Virus record (IMG/VR): IMGVR_UViG_3300042349_000541
Coordinates: 158,773-168,799 of that record
Length of the DNA: 10,027 nucleotides
Strand: one strand, 5' to 3'
Origin: a virus
Taxonomy: Duplodnaviria; Heunggongvirae; Uroviricota; Caudoviricetes
Made by a program: the position numbers and the translations under genes. Under the pieces are notes generated by a model. It saw only the letters and a program-made list of their open reading frames with translations, was not told the DNA's origin and did no database searches. Below are positions 1 to 10,027 of the stretch, one piece after another (the stretch's first letter is position 1; every line of letters starts with the position of its first letter).

Positions 1-300
1 GAGTTTTATAGCTTACTTAAAAAACATGGAGACGTTGTTATTTCCACATCGCCAAGTTCCCACCCTTTATGCACTCAGGAAAAAATTGCTTTTTGTCAAG
101 ACAAACTAGGTATTAAAAGAAGAGATATAATGGTTGGAGGAAGAAAAGAATTACTTGCAGGTAAAGGTAGAATACTAATAGATGATTACACTGAAAATAT
201 CAATATTTTCAATAGATATGGCGGAAACGGAATTTTGTTTAAACAGCCTTGGAATAACGGAATAGATCGCCAAGAAATAATTGAAATTATTAACTTATAA
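1..300 (+). CDS. 5'-truncated HAD-superfamily 5'(3')-deoxyribonucleotidase (NT5C-like), C-terminal 99 aa
   Basis: Frame +1 is open from base 1 to TAA at 298-300: EFYSLLKKHGDVVISTSPSSHPLCTQEKIAFCQDKLGIKRRDIMVGGRKELLAGKGRILIDDYTENINIFNRYGGNGILFKQPWNNGIDRQEIIEIINL*. It shows HAD motif II-like ISTSP, motif III Lys (QEK), motif IV LIDD and the C-terminal GILFxxPWN typical of NT5C/phage deoxyribonucleotidases. The start lies upstream of the window, so it is absent from the ORF track. Confidence 0.75.
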   Translation, partial: EFYSLLKKHGDVVISTSPSSHPLCTQEKIAFCQDKLGIKRRDIMVGGRKELLAGKGRILIDDYTENINIFNRYGGNGILFKQPWNNGIDRQEIIEIINL

Positions 301-308
301 ATATTAAC

Positions 309-312
309 GGAG
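309..312 (+). promoter_or_regulatory. Possible Shine-Dalgarno site (GGAG) for the CDS at 319
   Basis: GGAG lies 6 nt upstream of ATG 319, in the only intergenic gap longer than 4 nt (301-318). Confidence 0.4.
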
Positions 313-318
313 CACTTT

Positions 319-1317
319 ATGGAAATTAGTTACGCCAGATCTTCACTGCTTGGTTCTTACGCCTACTGTCAGTTAAAAACATATATTACATACAACTTAG
401 GAATTCAAGAACCTAGTCAGCTAAAAGCAAATTTGGGGACGATTACCCATAAAGCACTTGAAATATTAGCTAACTGCAAAAAACAAATACAGGATAATCC
501 TAAAAATAAAAAATTTATATTCAACGATACGGATTTTGGGGAAATTAAATATAGCTATAAAACATTAATGTCGGAAGAATTTGTTAAAACTATATTAAAT
601 TTATCCTATGAATATTATACTAAAAACACTCCGCATTTAAACTATATTCGTAATGAGCATTATCCTTTTTGCGAAAAAATGGTGGACGCTTGCTTAAATA
701 TAAACAGTGGTCAATTTGATCCTAGAAAAATGAATATATTGCAAGCAGAATGCCCATTCGATTTAGAAGTAAAACAGCCTTGGGCTAACGGCTTAAGGCT
801 GAAAGGCACAATGGATTTATTGACACTCGGAGATTCTGACACTATAGAGTATGTAGATTATAAGACAGGGGCAAGAAAAGATTGGGCCACTGGCGAGATT
901 AAAGACCTGCCTAAACTGCAAAAAGATATACAACTATTGCTGTATTATTACGCAATAAGACAAATATTTCCGCAATACAAGAATGTAATTATGACAATAT
1001 TCTTTCTGCGTGATGGCGGACCTTTCACCGTCTTGTACGATAGTAAGGACGAAGAATACTTCATGAATGAACTAAAAAGACTTTATATAGAAATAAAAAA
1101 TAACAAAAATCCTAAACCGATCAATAGATGGAGAAGCGATTTTAGATGTCAAAAACTTTGCCATTATTACAAAACAAATTGGCCGGAAACTAAAACTAAC
1201 ATTTGTCAATATGTAGAAGATAACATAAAATTGTACGGAATAGAAGAAACAACACAAAATTTAAAGAAAAAGGGGTTTGAAACAAGTTTTTATCAATCTC
1301 CGGGATCAGTAAAATAA
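319..1317 (+). CDS. PD-(D/E)XK nuclease, RecB/AddB/Cas4-like exonuclease (332 aa)
   Basis: N-terminal SSLLGSYAYCQ (S.S....y..C pattern), G(T)xxH (GTITH), AECPF, catalytic KGTMDLL and EYVDYKTG, motif IV QLLLY, and a C-terminal Cys cluster CQKLC...IC. Confidence 0.85.
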   Translation: MEISYARSSLLGSYAYCQLKTYITYNLGIQEPSQLKANLGTITHKALEILANCKKQIQDNPKNKKFIFNDTDFGEIKYSYKTLMSEEFVKTILNLSYEYYTKNTPHLNYIRNEHYPFCEKMVDACLNINSGQFDPRKMNILQAECPFDLEVKQPWANGLRLKGTMDLLTLGDSDTIEYVDYKTGARKDWATGEIKDLPKLQKDIQLLLYYYAIRQIFPQYKNVIMTIFFLRDGGPFTVLYDSKDEEYFMNELKRLYIEIKNNKNPKPINRWRSDFRCQKLCHYYKTNWPETKTNICQYVEDNIKLYGIEETTQNLKKKGFETSFYQSPGSVK

Positions 1318-1318
1318 T

Positions 1319-1834
1319 ATGATTGAATTTAAAATTACAGACGAAATGGTTAGAAAAGCTTGGGCTAAATCTATTGATATGGGCAAGCTTAAGAATTCCA
1401 TAACCGAAGGCGATGGAAATATTGCGGGATTTATCGGAGAACAGGTTGCAAACCTTGTGATCGGTGGTACAATAGTCAATACGAAGGATTACGATCTTGT
1501 CGGGCCTGATGGAACGACTTATGATGTCAAAACGAAGCGGTGTACTTCCGAGCCTATGGCTCACTATGAATGTAGTGTTGCAGCTTATAATACAGTCCAA
1601 AAGTGTGATAAGTATATTTTTATTAGAGTTGAGTTTGTTGATAATAAATATACTAGAGCGTGGTATCTTGGCAGTATAGATAAAAATCTATATTTCAATA
1701 AGGCCCGAAAGCTATACAAGGGCCAAAAAGACGGTTCTAATTGGTTTACTGTTAAAAGTGATTGTTACAATTTGAAAATTGAGGATTTGAATGACGATAA
1801 CAATGCGGACAACTCAGAAGAGGGAAAAGTTTAG
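1319..1834 (+). CDS. Putative restriction-endonuclease-like PD-(D/E)XK protein (171 aa)
   Basis: Motif order GFIGEQVA (motif I Glu), KDYDLV (PD-like Asp), YDVKTK ((D/E)xK) fits the restriction-endonuclease fold. The call rests on motif pattern only. Confidence 0.55.
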   Translation: MIEFKITDEMVRKAWAKSIDMGKLKNSITEGDGNIAGFIGEQVANLVIGGTIVNTKDYDLVGPDGTTYDVKTKRCTSEPMAHYECSVAAYNTVQKCDKYIFIRVEFVDNKYTRAWYLGSIDKNLYFNKARKLYKGQKDGSNWFTVKSDCYNLKIEDLNDDNNADNSEEGKV

Positions 1835-2168
1835 TTATTTTTTAAGTATTATTAAGTCAGCCGGTCTTATGTATAAATATGGCGGCATATCTCAACTATT
1901 TGACAAACTTGACTCTATAGATACCATTGGTATATTATACGTTGACGGGCTTGCTTGTTCTTGTGCTATAACAACTAAGAGTAATGCAATATTTGATATG
2001 TATAATATTGCTGCATATACAAGTATGCCGTTCAGACGTAAGGGTTATAGTAAAATGCTTTTGAAAAAAGTGCTATCTAGAGACAAGCGAAAGTTTAAAA
2101 ATAAACTATACAAATCTTCCGACTATAAATTTTACTCTAGAATAATTACAAAGAATTTGGTGTTTTAA
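1791..2168 (+). CDS. Putative minimal GNAT-family acetyltransferase (125 aa; alternative start ATG 1803)
   Basis: Beta-strand-like IGILYVDG / LACSCAIT / YNIAAYT followed by an acetyl-CoA-binding motif A-like PFRRKGYSKMLL. It fills the gap between its neighbours exactly (stop 2168, next ATG 2170) and overlaps the upstream CDS by 44 nt, so the start is uncertain. Confidence 0.55.
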   Translation: MTITMRTTQKREKFSYFLSIIKSAGLMYKYGGISQLFDKLDSIDTIGILYVDGLACSCAITTKSNAIFDMYNIAAYTSMPFRRKGYSKMLLKKVLSRDKRKFKNKLYKSSDYKFYSRIITKNLVF

Positions 2169-2169
2169 T

Positions 2170-2862
2170 ATGAATAAGAATCATTTTTGTGTTTTCGATT
2201 TTGAAACGGGCGGCGGCGAAAATCCGTCCAAGTGCCAGATAACTCAATTATCGGCAATTATAATTAATCCTAGAAGTTTAAGGGCAGAACCCGGAGGAAT
2301 ATTTGATTCCGAGGTTCAGCCCATATTTGATAACGATAAAGCTATTGCGGCGGACCTAAACCCTGTTCAGCAAGAAGCTTTAGATGTTACACGTAAGACT
2401 AAAGAAAAACTTATGGAGGCCCCGCCGGAAAAAATCGTATGGGAAAAATTCAAGCAGTTTATCAAACGATTTAATATAAAAAATAGCGTATACACCGCAC
2501 CTATTCCCGTGGGATATAATATAATAAATTATGACATGCCCATTATTAATAGGTTGTGCCTGCAATACGGGCCTGCATCTAAAGATAAACAATCGATATT
2601 TAATCAATTATACAAAGTCGATTTGCTTGATTATTTTATGATGATGACTGAAAATTCGGTCAATATAACTTCCCGCAAGCTTGTTGATATGATGGATTTT
2701 ATGGGAATGCCCTCTCATATGAAAGCTAACGCACACGATGGATTGCACGATGTAAAATGCACCGCTAATATTTTTATTAAGCTAATGCATTACCAGCGTG
2801 CTATTACTTTAAAAACAGATTATTCCAAGGCTTTTGCCGACAGCCCTTTATTTATAGAATAA
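2170..2862 (+). CDS. DEDDh 3'-5' exonuclease, DnaQ/Pol III epsilon-like (230 aa)
   Basis: ExoI VFDFETG (D10, E12), ExoII GYNIINYD (D122) and ExoIII AHDGLHD (H189, D194) are all intact. It lies directly upstream of dnaE. Confidence 0.9.
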   Translation: MNKNHFCVFDFETGGGENPSKCQITQLSAIIINPRSLRAEPGGIFDSEVQPIFDNDKAIAADLNPVQQEALDVTRKTKEKLMEAPPEKIVWEKFKQFIKRFNIKNSVYTAPIPVGYNIINYDMPIINRLCLQYGPASKDKQSIFNQLYKVDLLDYFMMMTENSVNITSRKLVDMMDFMGMPSHMKANAHDGLHDVKCTANIFIKLMHYQRAITLKTDYSKAFADSPLFIE

Positions 2863-2866
2863 AAAA

Positions 2867-5800
2867 ATGACAGAATTTGTTCCTTGGGTTCCTCTACATC
2901 AACACTCAAATCTTAGCCTGCTAGACGGTTTCTCCGTTCCTAAGGATATTGCGAAGACATGTGCGAGTTATGGTTATCGGGCCGCAGCTATTACTGACCA
3001 CAGAAACGTAGCCGCCCACGTAAAATTCTTTAAGGCTTGTAAAGATGCCGGTATTAAACCGATTTTAGGCTGCGAATTTGATATATCAGATGATTTGTCC
3101 ACTGTTAGAACTGCGGCAAATCGCTCTACTAATCACTTAGTAGTTCTGTGTAAAAATTTGGCCGGGTGGTATGAAATGCTTCGGGCCGTATCAAAAACAA
3201 ACGATCCTAATTCTTTTTATTACAAGGCCCGCATATCTTTAGAAGAATGCAAAGAGTTTCTATCTAGCGGAAACCATGTAGCTATCAGCGGCCATGCCGG
3301 AAGTACAATTTGTGATATACTTTTTACTTCCACATCTGTTTACAGAAGCAAGAGTGAAGAACAAGCCCGGACATTTTTACGCGAAGACTGGGAAACAGTT
3401 CTGGAGCAACATATACAAAAGCATATTGATGTATTCGGCAAAGAGAATTTTTTTCTTGAGATTCAACTAATCGATAAAGAACATTTACCCATGACTTCCG
3501 TAACGGCTGAATGTCTAAGGTATATGTCTCAAAAATTAAACATTAAAACAGTGGCGACCGCAGATAGTCATTACGTTCGTAAGAGCGATGCTATTTACCA
3601 AAGAATTTTGCTATGTTCTAACTTGGGGCGTACCCTGCCGGGAGTCATGCGAGATATCCAGAACGGAAAAGACGTTCCTCTTGGTACATTCTTCGTGTCT
3701 GATAACTATCATATTCCTACATATGCTGAAATGCAAGCATTGCACACTCAGGAAGAACTGGAGAATGCAGTTTTGATAGCGGACATGTGTGAAGAGTACG
3801 ACATTCTTTCAACTCCACAATTGCCAAAATTTGATTGTCCAAACGGTATGTCTGAAATCGAATATGTAAAACAGTTATGCCGTGAAGGATGGAAAAAACT
3901 TCCTTTTAAAAAACAAAAAGATCAAGTTTATATTGATCGTGTGAAGGAAGAACTTCAAGTTATTGAGGAAGCTAATCTGGCTGGATATTTTCTTATTGTT
4001 TGGGATATCATCAGATTTTGCAAGTCTAAAAACTGGAAAACGGGCGTGGGTAGAGGGTCAGCTTCAGGTTGTTTAATATCATATCTTATAGGCATTACAG
4101 GCATTGACCCCATTCCGTACAATCTACTATTTAGTAGGTTTTATAACTCCGGAAGAAAAGGTACTTTGCCAGATATTGATCTTGATATTCCGAGTCAACA
4201 TAGGGATGAAATCATTCAGTATATTAAGACTAAATATGGTGAAGATAAAGTTTCACAGATGGCTACATTCTCTTCCTTAATGGGTAAGTCTGCCATGAAA
4301 GAAGTCCTACGCATTGAAGATGTTGTAACTCCAGCAGAAGCGAATGAAATCACGGAACATATTCCCGATAAAGCAGAAATTGCCGATGAATTAGAAAACA
4401 TGGAAGATGCATCTATTATTAAATGGGCATTGATTCATAGAGCAAGCAAGCTGTCTCAATGGTGTACTATCGATGAAGACGATAACTTGTCCGGGTCTTT
4501 GGCGGGATCTTTTTATAGGGCCATACAAATTGAAGGCTGTTATAAATCTCAAGGCAAGCACCCAGCGGGCGTTATTATCTCTTATAGGCCGCTACAAGAG
4601 ATTTGCCCCATCGTTAGGGATAAAGACGGGGCACCCATCGCGGGCTTAGAAATGGGCGATTTGGAGGCTTTGGGGCACGTAAAATTTGATATTCTTGGTG
4701 TGTCTATCTTAGATAAGTTAATGGATATAATTCCGCATTTGCCAGAAGGGTGTAATGTTGAAAATCTAGAAGATAAAGCGACTTGGAAAACTTTCGCAGA
4801 TGGTGACGTAAAGGGTATATTTCAGCTAGAAAAACAAAAACGATGGGTTAAAAAATTAAAACCAGAAAACATTCACCATTTAGCTGCTCTAGTTTCAATT
4901 ATCCGTCCGGGATGCGTTGAATCACTGGGAGAAGATGGTGTATCTATGACTCAGCACTATATCGACAGAAAAAACGGAGAAGAAGAAGTTCCAAGTATAC
5001 ATGAGGTTGTAGATAAGACCCTTAAGGATACATATGGAGTTTTGGTATATCAAGAAACAGCGATGTTATTGTCCAGAGATGTCGCAGGATTTACTCTGGA
5101 TGAAGCCGATGAATTAAGAAAAGCTATTGGTAAAAAACGCACCGATGTTATGGCTAAAGTAAAAGATAAATTCTTCAAAGGTTCTTCCAGAGTATCAGTT
5201 ACATCAGAAGAGATTACTAAAAAAATATTTGACTGGATTGAGAAATCGCAGCGTTACAGCTTTAACGCGAGTCATGCGTACTCATATGGACACAATGCTT
5301 ATTATTCCGCGTACTGTAAAACTCATAATCCGATTAAGTTCTACGAAGTCTATCTAAATCATTCTAAAAATGGTCCCGACCGAATGGAAGAAATAAAAGA
5401 TTTAGTAAATGATGCCAGACAGCATGGAATTAATGTTGTACCGCCATCTTTGAGTAATTTATATGAAAATTTTACTGCTGTTCCGGAACAAAATTCGATT
5501 GCTTTTGGATACGGGCACGTTAAAAATGTAGGTGTAAAAGAAGCAGCTAAAATAGAAGATATAAAATCCAAACACGATGTAGAGAAATTCAATTGGATAG
5601 ATATATTATGCACTTTTAATAAAATCAATAGCCTTTCAATGAATGCACTCATCGCAGTCGGTGCTTTTAATGGTGACTATAATAAAAACAGTAGAGATAA
5701 AATGCTTTACGAATATAATACCTTTAAGGATCTTACCGATAAAGAAATATTATTTATTAAAGAAAACGTAGAAAATGACAAGGGTTTGCTGTATCATATA

Positions 5801-6286
5801 AATTTGCTTATAAATAAATATAAGCTCACAAGCAGTAGAATGGCTAAAGTTTTAGGAATGAAGTCGGCACTGGAAAATCCAATGTACGATATTAATGATT
5901 CTGCGGCTATGATATTACAAAAAGAGCGTTTTTATATGGGGCTTCCTCTTTCTTATTTAGGTAATGTATCTCCGGGAAGTTATTCTTCCGATACTACATG
6001 TCTTGATGTTGTGAGCGGAAATGCTAAGGGGACGATTAATCTTATAGTTAATATAACAAATGTTAGAGAACATAAGGTCAAAAGCGGTAAGACGGCGGGC
6101 CAAATGATGGCTTTTATTAGTGGTGAAGATAGTACAGGATGCTTGAAGTCTATTGTTGCTTTTCCTAAAGAATATGCAGAATACAGAGCTTTGTTAGTTG
6201 AAAATAACAACATTATGATTCAGGGATCGGTAGAATCTAGAAATGATGAATACTCGTTAAATGTTAGGAAAATTGTACAGGTTTAA
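2867..6286 (+). CDS. dnaE: DNA polymerase III alpha subunit (C-family DnaE), 1139 aa
   Basis: PHP domain (LHQHS, SLLDG, ITDH, GCE, HLVVL, TADSHY), GRGSASG, LLFSRF, catalytic PDIDLD (D436, D438) and KFDILG (D608), GIFQLE, GVLVYQE, LRKAIGKK, FNASHAYSY, HhH-like GHVKNVG, and a C-terminal OB fold (KSGKTAGQMMAFISGEDSTG...). Confidence 0.97.
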   Translation: MTEFVPWVPLHQHSNLSLLDGFSVPKDIAKTCASYGYRAAAITDHRNVAAHVKFFKACKDAGIKPILGCEFDISDDLSTVRTAANRSTNHLVVLCKNLAGWYEMLRAVSKTNDPNSFYYKARISLEECKEFLSSGNHVAISGHAGSTICDILFTSTSVYRSKSEEQARTFLREDWETVLEQHIQKHIDVFGKENFFLEIQLIDKEHLPMTSVTAECLRYMSQKLNIKTVATADSHYVRKSDAIYQRILLCSNLGRTLPGVMRDIQNGKDVPLGTFFVSDNYHIPTYAEMQALHTQEELENAVLIADMCEEYDILSTPQLPKFDCPNGMSEIEYVKQLCREGWKKLPFKKQKDQVYIDRVKEELQVIEEANLAGYFLIVWDIIRFCKSKNWKTGVGRGSASGCLISYLIGITGIDPIPYNLLFSRFYNSGRKGTLPDIDLDIPSQHRDEIIQYIKTKYGEDKVSQMATFSSLMGKSAMKEVLRIEDVVTPAEANEITEHIPDKAEIADELENMEDASIIKWALIHRASKLSQWCTIDEDDNLSGSLAGSFYRAIQIEGCYKSQGKHPAGVIISYRPLQEICPIVRDKDGAPIAGLEMGDLEALGHVKFDILGVSILDKLMDIIPHLPEGCNVENLEDKATWKTFADGDVKGIFQLEKQKRWVKKLKPENIHHLAALVSIIRPGCVESLGEDGVSMTQHYIDRKNGEEEVPSIHEVVDKTLKDTYGVLVYQETAMLLSRDVAGFTLDEADELRKAIGKKRTDVMAKVKDKFFKGSSRVSVTSEEITKKIFDWIEKSQRYSFNASHAYSYGHNAYYSAYCKTHNPIKFYEVYLNHSKNGPDRMEEIKDLVNDARQHGINVVPPSLSNLYENFTAVPEQNSIAFGYGHVKNVGVKEAAKIEDIKSKHDVEKFNWIDILCTFNKINSLSMNALIAVGAFNGDYNKNSRDKMLYEYNTFKDLTDKEILFIKENVENDKGLLYHINLLINKYKLTSSRMAKVLGMKSALENPMYDINDSAAMILQKERFYMGLPLSYLGNVSPGSYSSDTTCLDVVSGNAKGTINLIVNITNVREHKVKSGKTAGQMMAFISGEDSTGCLKSIVAFPKEYAEYRALLVENNNIMIQGSVESRNDEYSLNVRKIVQV

Positions 6287-6288
6287 AT

Positions 6289-6582
6289 ATGAATAATTGT
6301 TATTTTGTCGGAAGAATATTAGAAGATTTAACTCTTAATGTTGAGCATGATTGTAATGTGTGTGATTTTGTCATAGAAGTTGAAGAGAAGTGGCAAGGAA
6401 AAACTGATGGTAAAAAAAATATCATTAAAACTATGATTAACTGCACTGCTTGGGATAAAGGTGCTGACGCATTATATGCCAAACTTGTCAAGGGCGATAT
6501 GATTTTTATTGAAGGCTCCTTACGTCATGACGAAGACGGAATAGATTACATAAGAGTCAACAGTTTCAGAAAGGCATATTAA
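6289..6582 (+). CDS. ssb: Single-stranded DNA-binding protein, OB fold only (97 aa, no acidic tail)
   Basis: SSB pattern NNCYFVGRILEDL...DFVIEV...MINCTAWDKGADAL...KGDMIFIEGSLR. It follows dnaE after a 2-nt gap. Confidence 0.75.
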   Translation: MNNCYFVGRILEDLTLNVEHDCNVCDFVIEVEEKWQGKTDGKKNIIKTMINCTAWDKGADALYAKLVKGDMIFIEGSLRHDEDGIDYIRVNSFRKAY

Positions 6583-8216
6583 TGAAAAAAATATTGCTAT
6601 GCACAGAGTTTAGCGGATTTAGTACGGGATACGGAGTTTACGGTAGAGAGCTTCTAAGCAGGCTGTCTAAACACTACGAAGTGGCCGAGCTAGGTTGTTA
6701 CATAACACCTGATGATCCAAGAATGTCTAATTATCCTTGGAGGGTTTATCCGAACAAGCCTAGCGAAAACAGTCCTGATTATAATAATTATTTAGCGTCT
6801 AGTTCTTTTGAATACGGCGAATATACATTCAACAATGTATTATTAGATTTTAAACCTGACTATGTCATAGACTTTAGAGATCCTTGGGCGTTTGAATATC
6901 AAAGCAGATCGCCGTTTCGGAATTTTTACAACTGGCTTATATGCCCAACTGTAGACGCTAGACCACAAAATGCTGACTGGATGGAATTGTACGGAAATGC
7001 CGATGGTGTTTTAACATACTCTGAATTCGGCAAAAAAACTATTCTGGCTCAATCTAGCAATATTAACGTCTTAGGAGTTGCAAGTCCTGCGGCGAGCGAA
7101 AACTACAAGCCTTTTACTATAGAAGAAAAAAATCAGTTGCGGGCCTTCAATAATATTCCTCAGGATATTTATATTCTAGGCACCGTTATGCGTAATCAGC
7201 CTAGAAAATTGTTTCCGGAATTATTTAAACTATTCAAGAGATATGTCAGAGAGTCGGGCCGTAGAGATGTTTACTTATACTGCCATACTGCATTTCCTGA
7301 TGTTGGATGGAATATTCCGGAATTATTAATGGAATCAGAATTATCCAGTAGAGTTCTTTTTACTTACAAATGTAAGACTTGCCAAAACATATCTGTCGAG
7401 CATTTTTCCGATACAGTAAAATACTGCAATAAATGCGGAAACTTTAGTAAAAATATCGCGGGCGTTAATAATAGCCTGACAGAACAAGAGCTTAACTTTG
7501 TATATAACCTATTTGATGTATATATTCAATACGCTACAAATGAGGGTTTTGGAATTCCTATAGTAGAAGCGGCTAAAGCGGGTGTTCCGGTAATGAATGT
7601 TAATTATTCTTCAATGGAAGATTTTTCACAAACGATATCTACTATACCTATTGATGTAAAAGAATATGTTAAAGAGGCTTCTACTTCAAGATTGCTTGCA
7701 GTCCCCTGTGAAAATTCGGCAGTAGATATTTTGTTTGATTTATTCTCTCTCCCAAGAGATTACATGCATTCATCTCTTGGAAAAGCCTGTCATAAATTAT
7801 CTAGTGATTTTTATTCTTGGGATAAAAACGCACAGGTTTGGATCGACGCAATCGAATCAATTCCTTTAAAGAGTAAAAAATGGAATGATCCCGTTGAAAT
7901 TTTGCAGCCGGACCCTATAATGAACGTGGGCATGTCTCCGTGCGAACAGGCTGTATTTTTAATCAATAACGTTTTAAAGAAGCCGGAATTTATGTTTTCT
8001 AATTTATGGAGAAGGCTTGTTAAAGATCTTACTTATAGAAGTACAATGCCGGGTATGGGACTATTATATTTTAATGAAAATTCATTCAAGGATAATTTAA
8101 AAGGCAGACCATTTACATTTGAAGATGCATATGAATCAATGGTTCAGCTAAGAGATTTTTATAATAAATGGGAACAGAACAGAAATGAAAGTATTGTACA
8201 TAGGTCATTACGCTGA
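6582..8216 (+). CDS. GT-B fold glycosyltransferase, GT4-like (544 aa), with a Cys4 zinc-ribbon insertion and a C-terminal extension
   Basis: N-terminal KKILL...STGYG, donor-binding VMRNQPRK, canonical GT4 EGFGIPIVEA (E321-x7-E329) and closing YSWDK helix. CxxC-x14-CxxC lies at C264-C285. Confidence 0.9.
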   Translation: MKKILLCTEFSGFSTGYGVYGRELLSRLSKHYEVAELGCYITPDDPRMSNYPWRVYPNKPSENSPDYNNYLASSSFEYGEYTFNNVLLDFKPDYVIDFRDPWAFEYQSRSPFRNFYNWLICPTVDARPQNADWMELYGNADGVLTYSEFGKKTILAQSSNINVLGVASPAASENYKPFTIEEKNQLRAFNNIPQDIYILGTVMRNQPRKLFPELFKLFKRYVRESGRRDVYLYCHTAFPDVGWNIPELLMESELSSRVLFTYKCKTCQNISVEHFSDTVKYCNKCGNFSKNIAGVNNSLTEQELNFVYNLFDVYIQYATNEGFGIPIVEAAKAGVPVMNVNYSSMEDFSQTISTIPIDVKEYVKEASTSRLLAVPCENSAVDILFDLFSLPRDYMHSSLGKACHKLSSDFYSWDKNAQVWIDAIESIPLKSKKWNDPVEILQPDPIMNVGMSPCEQAVFLINNVLKKPEFMFSNLWRRLVKDLTYRSTMPGMGLLYFNENSFKDNLKGRPFTFEDAYESMVQLRDFYNKWEQNRNESIVHRSLR

Positions 8217-9303
8217 TGGAACTGGTTGGGGCAATGCCGCACTCCATAACATTATAGCTATGAACAGAATTGGAATAGATGTTGTTCCAAGGAGAGTTTC
8301 ATACAAACCAGAAGAAGCACAATCAGTACCTCAAGAAATAGCAGAGCTAGAACAAAAATCTTTGTACGGAGTAGATGTATGCGTTCAACATACATTACCG
8401 ACTAATTATAGTTATTACTCCGGTAGGTCAAAAATCAGAAACATATGCATGTACGAAACTGAGACTAACGATTTTGGATATACTCAGTGGCATAAGTACA
8501 TCAACATGTTTAAAGAGTGTTGGGTTCCAAATAATGATATGGTTATGGACTCATTTTTGTCCGGGGTAAAATGCAAAGCAACTGTAGTTAATCATTGCAT
8601 TGATGTTGATAAGTATAAAAATTTTGTACCGCAAAATGTTATAGCGGGACTTGAAGATAAAAATGCTTATAACTTTTGTTACGTCGGGGAATTAAGTAAG
8701 AGAAAAAATGTTAAAGCTATCTTGCAGGCTTTCCATTTGGAGTTTGGTATGCATGAGAATGTGAACTTATTTTTAAAACTTAATATGCCCGGAAAGAGTG
8801 CTAATGAAACGCTTCAAATAGCAAATGAATTAAATGAAAATGTTACTCGCGGCCTTAAAATAAGAAATAAATACAAAGAGCCGTTTGTTTTATGCGGGCA
8901 CTGCGATGACAACGATCTTTTGTCTTTCATGAGTCAGTGTCATTGCTTCGTATGCGCTAGCAGTGGCGAGGCATGGTGCATTCCGGCACTAGAAGGAATG
9001 GCATTAGGTCTAGACTTAATATATACTAAAGGTACTGGTTTATCAGAATTTGCTTTTAGTGACGCAATAGCGGTCAATAGCACGATTAGTCCCTGTACAG
9101 ATGCCTTAGACACATTACCTGAAATATACACAGGTTTTGAAACATGGAGAAATATTGACATATCATGTTTACAGATTGCTATGAGACGGGCATTTTATAG
9201 AAAAAATTTTATAGATAGAGAAAAAATTAAGGAGCGTGCTTTTGAATTCGGTTACGATAGAACCGGAAAGCAAATTATGGAGGCATTAAATGATACAAAA
9301 TAA
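8185..9303 (+). CDS. GT-B fold glycosyltransferase, GT4-like (372 aa)
   Basis: MKVLYIG...GTGWG, NHCID, YVGELSKRKN and the E-x7-E motif GEAWCIPALEGM (E262, E270). It overlaps the upstream GT by 32 nt. Confidence 0.85.
   Translation: MKVLYIGHYADGTGWGNAALHNIIAMNRIGIDVVPRRVSYKPEEAQSVPQEIAELEQKSLYGVDVCVQHTLPTNYSYYSGRSKIRNICMYETETNDFGYTQWHKYINMFKECWVPNNDMVMDSFLSGVKCKATVVNHCIDVDKYKNFVPQNVIAGLEDKNAYNFCYVGELSKRKNVKAILQAFHLEFGMHENVNLFLKLNMPGKSANETLQIANELNENVTRGLKIRNKYKEPFVLCGHCDDNDLLSFMSQCHCFVCASSGEAWCIPALEGMALGLDLIYTKGTGLSEFAFSDAIAVNSTISPCTDALDTLPEIYTGFETWRNIDISCLQIAMRRAFYRKNFIDREKIKERAFEFGYDRTGKQIMEALNDTK
9279..9283 (+). promoter_or_regulatory. Shine-Dalgarno site (GGAGG) for the CDS at 9290
   Basis: GGAGG lies 6 nt upstream of ATG 9290, inside the 3' end of the preceding CDS. 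Confidence 0.5.
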
Positions 9304-10027
9304 AATAAGGCAATATTTAAGATCCGCAGATTTATTGAATAACGCCGACTCACTAAATATATTAGTCATAGGATCTACACATGAACGCTATGAACAACAA
9401 TTATGTAAAACCGGCCATAACTTTTTCTCAATTAATCATGGGAAGCAATGGGATTTAAACTGCGGTGATATTCCGAAAAATTATCATATCATAGATTACA
9501 TTCCTCATGATTTAAAACCCGACTTAATTTTAACTCATGTCTCCGGAGAAAGACTTGATATAGCTAATGAATACGCAAGAATTTTTAATGTAAAAGTAAT
9601 ACGACATACGCATACATTGCCCGAAAATGATTATGAACTAAAGGTATTCCGTTCTCAATATGCAGATTTAAATACATTCATATCTGAATACAGTAAAAAT
9701 GCATGGGGTTTAAATAATCAGAAAACCGATGTTATTACGCACGGAATTGATACGAGTTTTTTTTCTGATAAAAATATAGAAAGAAAAAATACAGTATTAT
9801 CTGTTGTGAACAAATGGGCTAATCGAGATTGGGCCTGCGGCTGGAAGTTATACCAAGAAATCGTTAATGGAAATAAAGATAAAACATTTATTGTTGCGGG
9901 AGATAATCCGGGTTTATCTAAACCGGCCAGTAGCACAAAGGCACTCGTTGATTTGTATAACGAATCATCTATATTTCTAAATACATCGCAATTTTCTCCC
10001 GTCCCGATGGCTTTAATTGAAGCTATG
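9290..10027 (+). CDS. 3'-truncated GT-B fold glycosyltransferase, GT4-like (first 246 aa)
   Basis: Hand translation is open from ATG 9290 to the window end: MIQNKIRQYLRSADLLNNADSLNILVIGSTHERYEQQLCKTGHNF...KPDLILTH...RHTHTLP...TFISEYSKNAW...VITHGIDTSFF...IVAGDNPG...LYNESSIFLNTSQFSPVPMALIEAM. PDLI, FISEY, HGIDT and FLNTS...LIEAM are GT4 hallmarks. It is absent from the ORF track because no stop falls in the window. Confidence 0.85.
   Translation, partial: MIQNKIRQYLRSADLLNNADSLNILVIGSTHERYEQQLCKTGHNFFSINHGKQWDLNCGDIPKNYHIIDYIPHDLKPDLILTHVSGERLDIANEYARIFNVKVIRHTHTLPENDYELKVFRSQYADLNTFISEYSKNAWGLNNQKTDVITHGIDTSFFSDKNIERKNTVLSVVNKWANRDWACGWKLYQEIVNGNKDKTFIVAGDNPGLSKPASSTKALVDLYNESSIFLNTSQFSPVPMALIEAM

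Follow-up and report, generated by a model that had tools for sequence, protein, structure and literature searches.

A conserved, soluble glycan-building module behind the replisome genes of an uncultured aquatic phage lineage: a candidate pathway for glycosylation of a phage protein

A set of glycosyltransferase (GT) genes follows directly behind the replisome genes of the uncultured tailed virus represented by IMG/VR record IMGVR_UViG_3300042349_000541. The stretch of DNA analysed here (the window) comprises the terminal 10,027 bases of this 168,799-bp record (positions 158773-168799, plus strand) and encodes a proofreading exonuclease, a DnaE-type DNA polymerase, a single-stranded DNA-binding protein (SSB) and three transferases, hereafter GT1, GT2 and GT3. 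A previous sequence-only reading had proposed that these transferases glycosylate newly replicated DNA. The present analysis leads to a different preference, held with about even confidence: the genes would direct the cytoplasmic synthesis of a methylated glycan, with a conserved core and variable decorations, on a phage protein, most likely a virion protein. Glycosylation of virion proteins, formerly listed as an alternative, thus becomes the preferred reading.

In the proposed mechanism, the window would be the front half of a conserved and entirely soluble glycan-building module that is co-transcribed with replisome genes. The core of the module would consist of three GT4 transferases, a protein with an S-adenosylmethionine (SAM) methyltransferase fold, a GT-A-like protein, a GT2-family enzyme, a sugar-phosphate nucleotidyltransferase and a CgeB-like transferase. 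Other loci would contribute a GDP-mannose 4,6-dehydratase, encoded in the head/packaging operon, together with further GT and FkbM-methyltransferase genes. In the cytoplasm, these enzymes may assemble a methylated hetero-oligosaccharide with a conserved core, to which relatives would add variable decorations, for example fucose via GT10 or GT47-like and GT25-like additions. The acceptor would be a product of the phage itself, with one or several virion proteins as the most likely targets, a situation known from chloroviruses and mycobacteriophages. The place of the module behind dnaE, to judge from gene position only, would reflect inherited operon order and middle-phase expression, not action on DNA.

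A glycan module fixed in the replication operon

The exonuclease, dnaE, ssb and three GT genes of the earlier reading were recovered as identical open reading frames (ORFs) with the same coordinates and junctions, and their families were confirmed by Pfam and PHROG (Table 1). From the exonuclease through dnaE, ssb, GT1 and GT2 to GT3, the junctions measure +4, +2, -1, -32 and -14 nt, the ssb stop codon overlapping the GT1 start by one base, and the ATG of GT3 is preceded by a GGAGG ribosome-binding site. Promoter-like and terminator-like matches in the window do not exceed those in shuffled sequence (52 vs 40.8 +/- 6.8 and 8 vs 5.7 +/- 2.0, respectively) and are all intragenic. The proposal that replisome genes and GTs form one tightly packed co-oriented unit is supported. 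The number of transferases had been given as at least three, a count that proves too low. A 127-bp direct repeat common to both record ends points to a circular assembly of ~168.7 kb and 36.4% GC, and the operon wraps over the contig end, going on past the terminal repeat at contig 128-5946, where it adds five glycan genes. Joined over the repeat, GT3 is a protein of 327 aa in a frame without stop, whose C-terminal half past the wrap matches Glycos_transf_1 (E 2e-20, 73.7 bits, cut-off 26.4). A terminator-like hairpin is found at contig ~6000, after the last plus-strand gene.

The same arrangement is a hallmark of the whole lineage. GT1 homologs number >1177 at E below 1e-3, and at least 596 IMG/VR contigs encode a relative; the best 120 homologs share 42-70% identity over their full length and come from marine and other aquatic metagenomes, on contigs often of 120-171 kb. 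Gene order was surveyed in 86 related IMG/VR loci, compared by tblastn. It is kept as DnaB-primase-dNMP kinase-PDDEXK-exo-DnaE-(SSB)-GT1-GT2-GT3-(148)-247-GT2fam-NTP-CgeB (dNMP, deoxynucleoside monophosphate; numbers are protein lengths). Conservation of the dnaE-ssb-GT synteny, which the sequence-only reading had suggested should be verified, is borne out by dnaE-(ssb)-GT1 adjacency in 85 of the 86 loci, the exception being one 2.9-kb fragment without dnaE. The dnaE-GT arrangement is not due to chance. Moreover, the transferases show conservation on a par with the replisome. Their median identities (GT1 43%, GT2 40%, GT3 45%, GT2-family enzyme 43%, CgeB-like protein 50%) equal those seen in the same loci with DnaB (46%), primase (39%), the exonuclease (46%) and DnaE (48%).

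The lineage is uncultured, aquatic, long-tailed and widespread. Among cultured phages, a megablast search with the window found no match, tblastn with GT1 found only the 22%-identical GTs of the Synechococcus siphoviruses S-CBS4 and S-EIVl, and the portal only a 22% match in a Clostridium phage; the nearest cultured-phage DnaE is ~29% identical. In species-representative genomes, GT1 has 16 matches, all on contigs of metagenome-assembled genomes (MAGs) from unrelated phyla, and the same gene order is present in 14 of 14 sufficiently long phage contigs binned into MAGs. The scattered phyla and the common dnaE-GT1 order indicate that these contigs are mis-binned phage, so that at this level of similarity the GT1 family has no cellular members. 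The relatives span 31-42% GC and their restriction-avoidance profiles differ, which argues for different hosts.

GT1, a probably active transferase of uncharacterised architecture

GT1 is a GT4-type retaining GT-B enzyme in the CAZy sense: it has two Rossmann-like domains and the EX7E motif, and reaches the Pfam threshold. Its Glycos_transf_1 score of 26.4 lies exactly at the Pfam gathering cut-off, a borderline value explained by the zinc ribbon that interrupts the domain. The AlphaFold2 model (pLDDT 89, pTM 0.88) shows two domains of alternating beta/alpha elements, and all of its top 50 PDB structure matches are GT-B glycosyltransferases, mostly GT4 (E 1e-10 to 8e-20). The best solved fold is the glycosyltransferase 3oy2 of chlorovirus NY-2A (E 8e-20, TM 0.78 on target, 16% identity), followed by MshA, GlgM, sucrose-phosphate synthase, PimB' and BshA, with TreT also among the neighbours. 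In a viral structure library, GT1 falls beside transferases from uncultured tailed phages, from giant viruses and from viruses of archaea. Besides the ribbon, GT1 carries an extra helical C-terminal region of ~110 aa, several residues of which are invariant in 29 homologs.

In one homolog (P0047, 911 aa), an insertion of ~378 aa with a LAGLIDADG domain is placed exactly at EX7E, between YVQ.A and EGFGIP. This looks like an intein in a conserved catalytic site, for which a glycosyltransferase would be an unusual host. The invariant EX7E and the seating of the intein in that very motif suggest that GT1 is an active, selected enzyme. A prediction of a GT1-SSB complex gave no answer (score 0.00), weighing neither for nor against binding.

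Sugar supply, methylation and decoration

In total, the module includes five GTs with clear family matches, one GT-A-like fold, one methyltransferase fold and one NTP_transf-like protein. The CgeB-like transferase found no match among PDB sequences. No hydrophobic (membrane) segment was detected in any cluster protein. Further glycan genes are found elsewhere in the genome. At contig 95.4-97.9 kb these include a GT4 gene (96.8-97.9 kb, E 1e-13), and contig 142-146 kb holds an FkbM methyltransferase (E 3e-13) together with weak GT-A and GT8 matches. In relatives, the extra glycan genes encode an NDP-sugar (nucleoside diphosphate sugar) epimerase/dehydratase, GT47-like, GT10 fucosyltransferase and GT25-like enzymes and more methyltransferases, some of them inserted between replication genes.

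Of the NDP-sugar genes that the earlier reading had recommended looking for in flanking sequence, the genome has two candidates: the nucleotidyltransferase-like protein of the cluster and, in the late operon, a GDP-mannose 4,6-dehydratase (GMD; E 3e-95), flanked by a sigma-like factor on one side and the prohead protease/terminase genes on the other. Four relatives with complete or near-complete genomes share the arrangement sigma-263aa-GMD-95aa-ERCC4/ClpP-TerL. As a side observation, the start of the late operon (contig 50783-53123, minus strand) encodes a sigma-70 region-2-like factor, a conserved 263-aa protein and the dehydratase, followed by prohead protease, ERCC4 nuclease and terminase. 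The 263-aa protein has no match in PDB or the Atlas, and the few late-operon intergenic regions show no obvious shared late-promoter motif.

Evidence for and against a glycan on a phage protein

Several features of the module argue for a phage protein as the acceptor. Its distinct transferases represent six or more folds in this genome, and relatives reach about nine; so many transferases, combined with methylation and with the relatives' fucosyltransferase, point to a complex glycan, well beyond the mono- to trisaccharides known on DNA. Moreover, a core as conserved as the replisome, across the GC range and the differing avoidance profiles of the relatives, suggests a conserved phage-encoded acceptor and not a host-specific polysaccharide. 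Through the position of the dehydratase gene in the late operon, the supply of a 6-deoxyhexose precursor would be tied to particle assembly. As far as its predicted proteins tell, the module has soluble virus-encoded GTs and its own sugar-nucleotide supply, as in virion glycosylation systems.

The machinery that builds the capsid glycans of the chloroviruses PBCV-1 and NY-2A consists of virus-encoded soluble GTs, a GDP-mannose 4,6-dehydratase and sugar methylation. The present module resembles it in encoding soluble GTs, its own GDP-mannose dehydratase and methyltransferases, in the fold of GT1, whose best solved counterpart is NY-2A B736L (PDB 3oy2), and in the combination of a conserved core with accessory transferases that vary among relatives. 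The two differ, however, in host domain and virus realm; at 16% identity, 3oy2 lacks both the zinc ribbon and the ~110-aa C-terminal domain of GT1, and the present module is known from genes alone. A second comparison is with the mycobacteriophages Che8, Corndog and Myrna, in which virion O-glycosylation has been described (Freeman et al. 2023, cited in PMC12619734 and PMC12801897). As related in the citing papers, these phages also encode soluble GTs and methyltransferases away from their structural genes, and the enzymes modify proteins of the capsid and the tail tube; on the same account, those systems comprise 2-4 genes with acceptor tails at the C-terminus, whereas here at least 8 genes stand in a replication operon and no Ser/Thr-rich tails are found.

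This last point belongs to a group of observations that weigh against a virion glycan. The virion-module proteins carry no Ser/Thr-rich tails or tracts such as are associated with O-glycosylation in other phages, the maximum being 50% S+T per 20-aa window, and the acceptor is at present a candidate class. GT1 always adjoins dnaE/ssb and never structural genes, so a replication-linked role also fits, and the timing of cluster expression is deduced from gene position only. The labels of the 148-aa methyltransferase and of the 247-aa GT-A protein derive from language-model and structure look-alikes only. Finally, soluble GT4 and GT2 enzymes also act on membrane lipid-linked intermediates, which makes solubility compatible with host-envelope targets.

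Host envelope and other cytoplasmic acceptors

Remodelling of the host cell envelope would have the soluble GTs act, at the inner face of the membrane, on lipid-linked intermediates of lipopolysaccharide (LPS), O-antigen, capsule or teichoic acid. We regard it as plausible but rather unlikely. It would alter the surface of the infected cell, for example to block superinfection or to prevent the adsorption of progeny to debris. GT4, GT2, GT10, GT25 and GDP-mannose dehydratase are classic LPS/O-antigen enzymes, the weak best NCBIfam matches are exopolysaccharide (EPS), LPS and teichuronic-acid transferases, and the absence of membrane segments is normal for peripheral transferases. In addition, the marine T4-like cyanophages S-SCSM2R (a cyanomyovirus with 13 GTs), S-SCSM1 and P-SSM2 are described as having 'cell wall synthesis and modification' gene sets (PMC12801897), the usual annotation for the large transferase sets of marine cyanophages, and share with the present lineage a marine habitat, many transferases of the GT1, GT2, GT10 and GT25 families and NDP-sugar epimerases/dehydratases. 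They are, however, an unrelated phage lineage, the present one having a DnaE replisome and a 2720-aa tape measure protein, and their genes form a variable island, whereas the module here is a fixed syntenic core set.

What is missing from the cluster proteins also speaks against the envelope: they include neither an initiating phosphoglycosyl transferase nor a flippase, a polymerase or a ligase, and no membrane protein of the GtrA/GtrB/GtrC type. GtrABC seroconversion modules combine a membrane flippase, a bactoprenol GT and a serotype-specific transferase, and the lack of hydrophobic segments sets the present cluster apart from them. Specifically, the GT2-family protein, at 260 aa, has no C-terminal membrane helices, and its GtrB-like phrog match reaches only E 2e-4 over the catalytic domain. 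Furthermore, replisome-like conservation of the core across relatives of such different GC content and avoidance profile would be unexpected for host-fitted enzymes, and the GT1 family is absent from cellular genomes save mis-binned phage contigs.

Another cytoplasmic acceptor, such as a non-virion phage protein, a host protein modified for takeover, RNA, or a soluble glycoside or oligosaccharide, seems rather improbable. Consistent with it, the fold neighbours of GT1 include the small-molecule GT4s MshA, BshA, GlgM, sucrose-phosphate synthase and TreT, all cluster proteins are soluble, and the phage is rich in RNA biology (RNA ligase, Thg1-like enzyme, nucleotidyltransferase). Yet six or more transferases plus variable accessory ones exceed the needs of a simple metabolite, and this reading has neither a known phage precedent nor a specific candidate.

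Enzyme evidence on DNA as the acceptor

The proposal of the sequence-only reading, in which GT1 (perhaps via its zinc ribbon) and the following GTs would put a sugar chain on newly replicated DNA, has become improbable. In its favour are the dnaE-(ssb)-GT1 adjacency found throughout, with overlapping stop and start codons, and the invariant Cys4 ribbon and C-terminal domain of GT1. In T4, b-gt adjoins gene 42 and lies close to genes 43, 41 and uvsX. DNA-acting GT-B enzymes can resemble BshA/MshA (10.1101/2023.12.21.572611), which are also fold neighbours of GT1. A T4-gp1-like dNMP kinase is conserved in the operon, as in phages with modified dNMPs (PMC13326640). This kinase (phrog_139, E 4e-32; PF21448 DNMK in relatives) is found in 77 of the 86 loci and is not specific to modified-DNA phages.

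Known DNA glycosylation routes all begin at a hydroxylated C5 substituent, the hydroxyl coming either from a ThyA homolog acting on the mononucleotide or, at the DNA level, from a C5 methyltransferase together with a 5-methylpyrimidine dioxygenase, and the known DNA sugar marks hold at most three sugars (10.1101/2023.12.21.572611; PMC13326640). Within the ThyA family, N177D marks cytosine specificity, an acidic residue at L143 hydroxymethylation, and D169N the 5-hydroxy-dCMP synthases (PMC13326640). The sole ThyA-family gene of the genome lies at contig 135186-136217 on the plus strand. Aligned to solved thymidylate synthases, its product has the motifs MALPPCH and QRSCD...LPNNIAS and keeps L143, C146, H147, D169 and N177. 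Since it keeps L143, D169 and N177 and passes the TIGR03284 cut-off, its sequence identifies it as an ordinary thymidylate synthase. A role as hydroxymethylase or 5-hydroxy-dCMP synthase was considered and rejected, as these three residues are unchanged and the diagnostic substitutions absent. Comparison with annotated phages is not discriminating, the best matches being ~33% identical 'thymidylate synthases'. Two insertions (at ~residues 90-130 and 147-180) and an Asn in place of Phe at the folate-contacting F176 position were also observed, beside canonical catalytic and specificity residues.

This homolog is missing from five relatives, complete ones included, that keep the GT cluster. Thymidylate synthases are patchy in the lineage: of four complete or near-complete relatives, two (G001 and G002) have ThyX, and two (G003 and G004) have neither ThyA nor ThyX.

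Searches for the second route to a hydroxyl were equally negative. Six-frame family searches of the genome and the five relatives found no match to Tet_JBP (PF12851), for which the control contained no true positive and a divergent enzyme could be missed, and none to the C5 DNA methylase family (PF00145), whose controls were positive in 9 of 14 genomes. In the own genome, the six-frame searches gave no match to 2OG-FeII_Oxy_2/3 (PF13640, PF13532), and Pfam or PHROG scans of ~85 of its proteins revealed no dioxygenase or C5 methylase.

The transferases themselves show no likeness to the T4 enzymes. A six-frame search for the T4 beta-GT family PF09198 gave no match, with a control that gave no match anywhere; the cluster proteins have no Pfam match to the T4 alpha- or beta-GT family; BLASTP against T4 a-gt and b-gt left every cluster protein at E above 0.3; and both T4 enzymes fall outside the top-50 lists of GT1 in PDB and in the viral structure library. 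As a proxy for DNA binding, the net charge of these enzymes was dropped, because T4 a-gt is itself acidic.

Compared with T4-type and other DNA glycosylation (methyltransferase, 5-methylpyrimidine dioxygenase and GT; 5-hydroxy-dCMP synthase and arabinosyl or hexosyl transferases), the module is similar in its GT-B (and GT-A) folds, in its placement among replication/early genes, in the nearby dNMP kinase and, for some of those systems, in a phage-encoded NDP-sugar supply. It differs in that no hydroxymethylase, hydroxylase, C5 methyltransferase or dioxygenase was found here, in its lack of a-gt/b-gt similarity, in restriction-site avoidance and in the number and kinds of enzymes, far more than any known DNA glycan needs. 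Likewise, the 5-hydroxy-dCMP synthase pathway of RB69, DLP3 and RL38J1 relies on D169N plus N177D, whereas D169 and N177 are kept here; a cognate dNMP kinase is present.

Restriction-site avoidance

Independent evidence comes from type II restriction sites, which are extremely depleted in this genome. CCWGG does not occur at all (0 vs ~106 expected) and GCGC occurs 20 times vs 190. Six-base palindromes with an expected count of 8-30 number 22, and 19 of them occur at most once, vs 3 of 286 non-palindromic hexamers. Sites such as CCGG, GGCC and GATC remain. The purging extends along the molecule, with 13-17 of 40-43 palindromes absent from each 50-kb third. Two complete or near-complete relatives show the same pattern at partly different sites: in G001, CCWGG is absent (0 vs 151) together with 9 of 27 palindromes, and G003 lacks CCWGG (0 vs 181), GGWCC (0 vs 98), GCGC (0 vs 108), CGCG (0 vs 67) and 11 of 24 palindromes. 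Across 36 non-redundant loci of 21 kb each, the observed/expected ratio is 0.72 for GC-containing hexamer palindromes vs 0.98 for mirror-repeat controls, and some purges are locus-specific (GATC 0 vs 60 in one locus, TCGA 2 vs 40 in another). T4, whose glucosyl-hmC DNA is resistant to 94% of type II enzymes (PMC7653180), behaves differently: its first 50 kb contains every one of the 41 six-base palindromes for which 3 or more occurrences are expected, and CCWGG occurs 30 times vs 34.

Strong purging that differs among relatives with the same transferases indicates that incoming phage DNA can be cut by type II enzymes, and the DNA would thus look unprotected. This pattern fits poorly with a sugar on C or T throughout the genome; a sparse or site-specific mark is compatible with it. 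It is very improbable that GT1, fixed behind dnaE/ssb and bearing an invariant zinc ribbon, glycosylates nucleic acid, either replicating DNA or phage RNA, by an acceptor chemistry that dispenses with the known hydroxymethylase, hydroxylase and dioxygenase steps, in which case the mark would be sparse or site-specific, because the genome must stay unshielded from type II restriction, and the downstream GTs would extend it to a long methylated glycan.

As a separate observation, CCWGG is at 0 occurrences in 32 of the 36 loci, and likewise in all three of the complete or near-complete genomes counted. The explanation would be either an enzyme for CCWGG common to all hosts or a nuclease specific for this site encoded by the phages; the EcoRII-C family (PF09019), considered as a cause of the loss, gave no match, with a control that gave no match anywhere.

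DNA as the acceptor is consequently not supported, as no acceptor-making enzyme is present as far as sequence can tell and restriction sites are strongly avoided. The absence of such an enzyme from the genome had itself been named beforehand as evidence against a DNA target. Of the earlier idea that the GTs build a multi-sugar modification on new DNA, the multi-sugar structure stays plausible and the DNA target is not supported. A further sign against DNA that had been anticipated, GT homologs lying mostly beside structural or capsule genes, was not observed, since they always lie beside dnaE.

Genome context and other features

In a simple ORF map, the genome is divided into a minus-strand late block (~5.9-53.1 kb) and a plus-strand early/middle block running from 53 kb round to 5.9 kb, the exonuclease-to-GT operon forming the far end of the latter. 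The late block encodes the sigma-like factor, prohead protease, an intein-bearing large terminase, portal and cement protein (contig 42343-42819), and for the tail the tape measure protein of 2720 aa and large distal proteins. A major capsid candidate lies at contig 41313-42305. The features of the window and of the operon continuation are collected in Table 1.

Table 1. Features of the window and of its continuation past the terminal repeat (window coordinates unless marked contig)
Feature	Position	Strand	Evidence and occurrence
5'-deoxynucleotidase, 3' part (NT5C family)	1-300; full gene contig 158569-159072	+	Pfam NT5C E 1e-7; phrog_2643 E 5e-12; 2/86 related loci
PD-(D/E)XK (Cas4/RecB-like) nuclease	319-1317	+	PDDEXK_1 E 2e-19; phrog_69 'exonuclease'; 81/86 loci; conserved replication-operon member
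Small ORFs, 171 aa (1319-1834) and 125 aa (1791-2168)	1319-2168	+	No significant Pfam/PHROG family; 171-aa protein in 44/86 loci
DnaQ-like 3'-5' proofreading exonuclease	2170-2862	+	RNase_T 32.5 bits (cut-off 24); phrog_192 'DNA polymerase exonuclease subunit' E 8e-24; 84/86 loci
DnaE-type replicative DNA polymerase (PHP, alpha NTPase, finger, HhH, OB)	2867-6286	+	DNA_pol3_alpha E 2e-67; phrog_405 E 7e-248
Short SSB, 97 aa	6289-6582	+	SSB 44.1 bits (cut-off 26); phrog_44; 70/86 loci
GT1, 544-aa GT4-type GT-B glycosyltransferase	6582-8216	+	Glycos_transf_1; phrog_2170
Cys4 zinc ribbon (C264, C267, C282, C285) in C-terminal Rossmann domain of GT1	7371-7436	+	Four Cys invariant (29 homologs); model beta-strands 258-292
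EX7E catalytic/sugar-donor motif of GT1 (E321-GFGIPIV-E329; NEGFGIPIVEA)	7542-7568	+	E321, G322, G324, P326, E329 invariant (29 homologs)
GT2, 372-aa GT4 glycosyltransferase	8185-9303	+	Glycos_transf_1 45.0 bits (cut-off 26.4); phrog_2170 E 2e-20; 77/86 loci, median identity 40%
GT3, N-terminal 246 aa of 327-aa GT4 glycosyltransferase	9290-10027; remainder contig 128-373	+	Glyco_transf_4 E 8e-4 in window part
148-aa protein, class I SAM-methyltransferase fold	operon continuation, contig 370-5946	+	Atlas look-alikes only
247-aa divergent GT-A-like protein	operon continuation, contig 370-5946	+	Atlas look-alikes only
GT2-family enzyme, 260 aa	operon continuation, contig 370-5946	+	E 5e-17
222-aa sugar-phosphate nucleotidyltransferase-like protein	operon continuation, contig 370-5946	+	Weak GlmU N-terminal match; relatives' homologs carry NTP_transf_3
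CgeB-like glycosyltransferase	operon continuation, contig 370-5946	+	Glyco_trans_1_2 E 1e-19
Three further small genes, one an HNH endonuclease	operon continuation, to contig 5946	+	

Some further observations concern interrupted genes. Core genes of this genome are broken up by mobile elements. The large terminase (contig 46335-49475, minus strand) is interrupted by an intein with a LAGLIDADG domain, and the ribonucleotide reductase (contig 104028-107537, plus strand) is, at 1169 aa, long enough to hold an intein. Nicotinamide phosphoribosyltransferase (contig 148538-151024, plus strand) is present as two ORFs, split by an endonuclease gene. In some relatives (L012:5590-9687, L013:110-4207), dnaE is split into a PHP plus NTPase half and a finger plus HhH half, with a 78-aa ORF and the proofreading exonuclease gene between the two. 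Finally, between minus-strand tail genes, contig 9284-10168 contains 885 nt without any ORF of at least 60 aa, in a late operon that is otherwise tightly packed.

Implications

Glycan modules of phages and giant viruses are already known, and the present one is not a new kind of system. In the literature consulted, no description was found for its fixed placement in a replisome operon, its status as a lineage-wide core, the architecture of GT1 or the division of a pathway between replication and head operons. The combination of GT4 domain, Cys4 ribbon and helical tail in GT1 is uncharacterised and open to direct expression and assay.

For annotation, these findings advise caution, as the presence of glycosyltransferase genes in a replication operon does not by itself point to sugars on DNA; the possibilities can be told apart cheaply by inspecting ThyA homologs for their diagnostic residues and the genome for restriction-site avoidance. 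If the module sugar-coats the virion, particle glycosylation would extend from a few actinobacteriophages to a widespread aquatic lineage, which is represented by no fewer than 596 contigs in IMG/VR and by over 1100 protein clusters. As a core gene set, the module equals the replisome in conservation, and its logic of a conserved core with variable decorations would resemble that of giant-virus capsid glycans.

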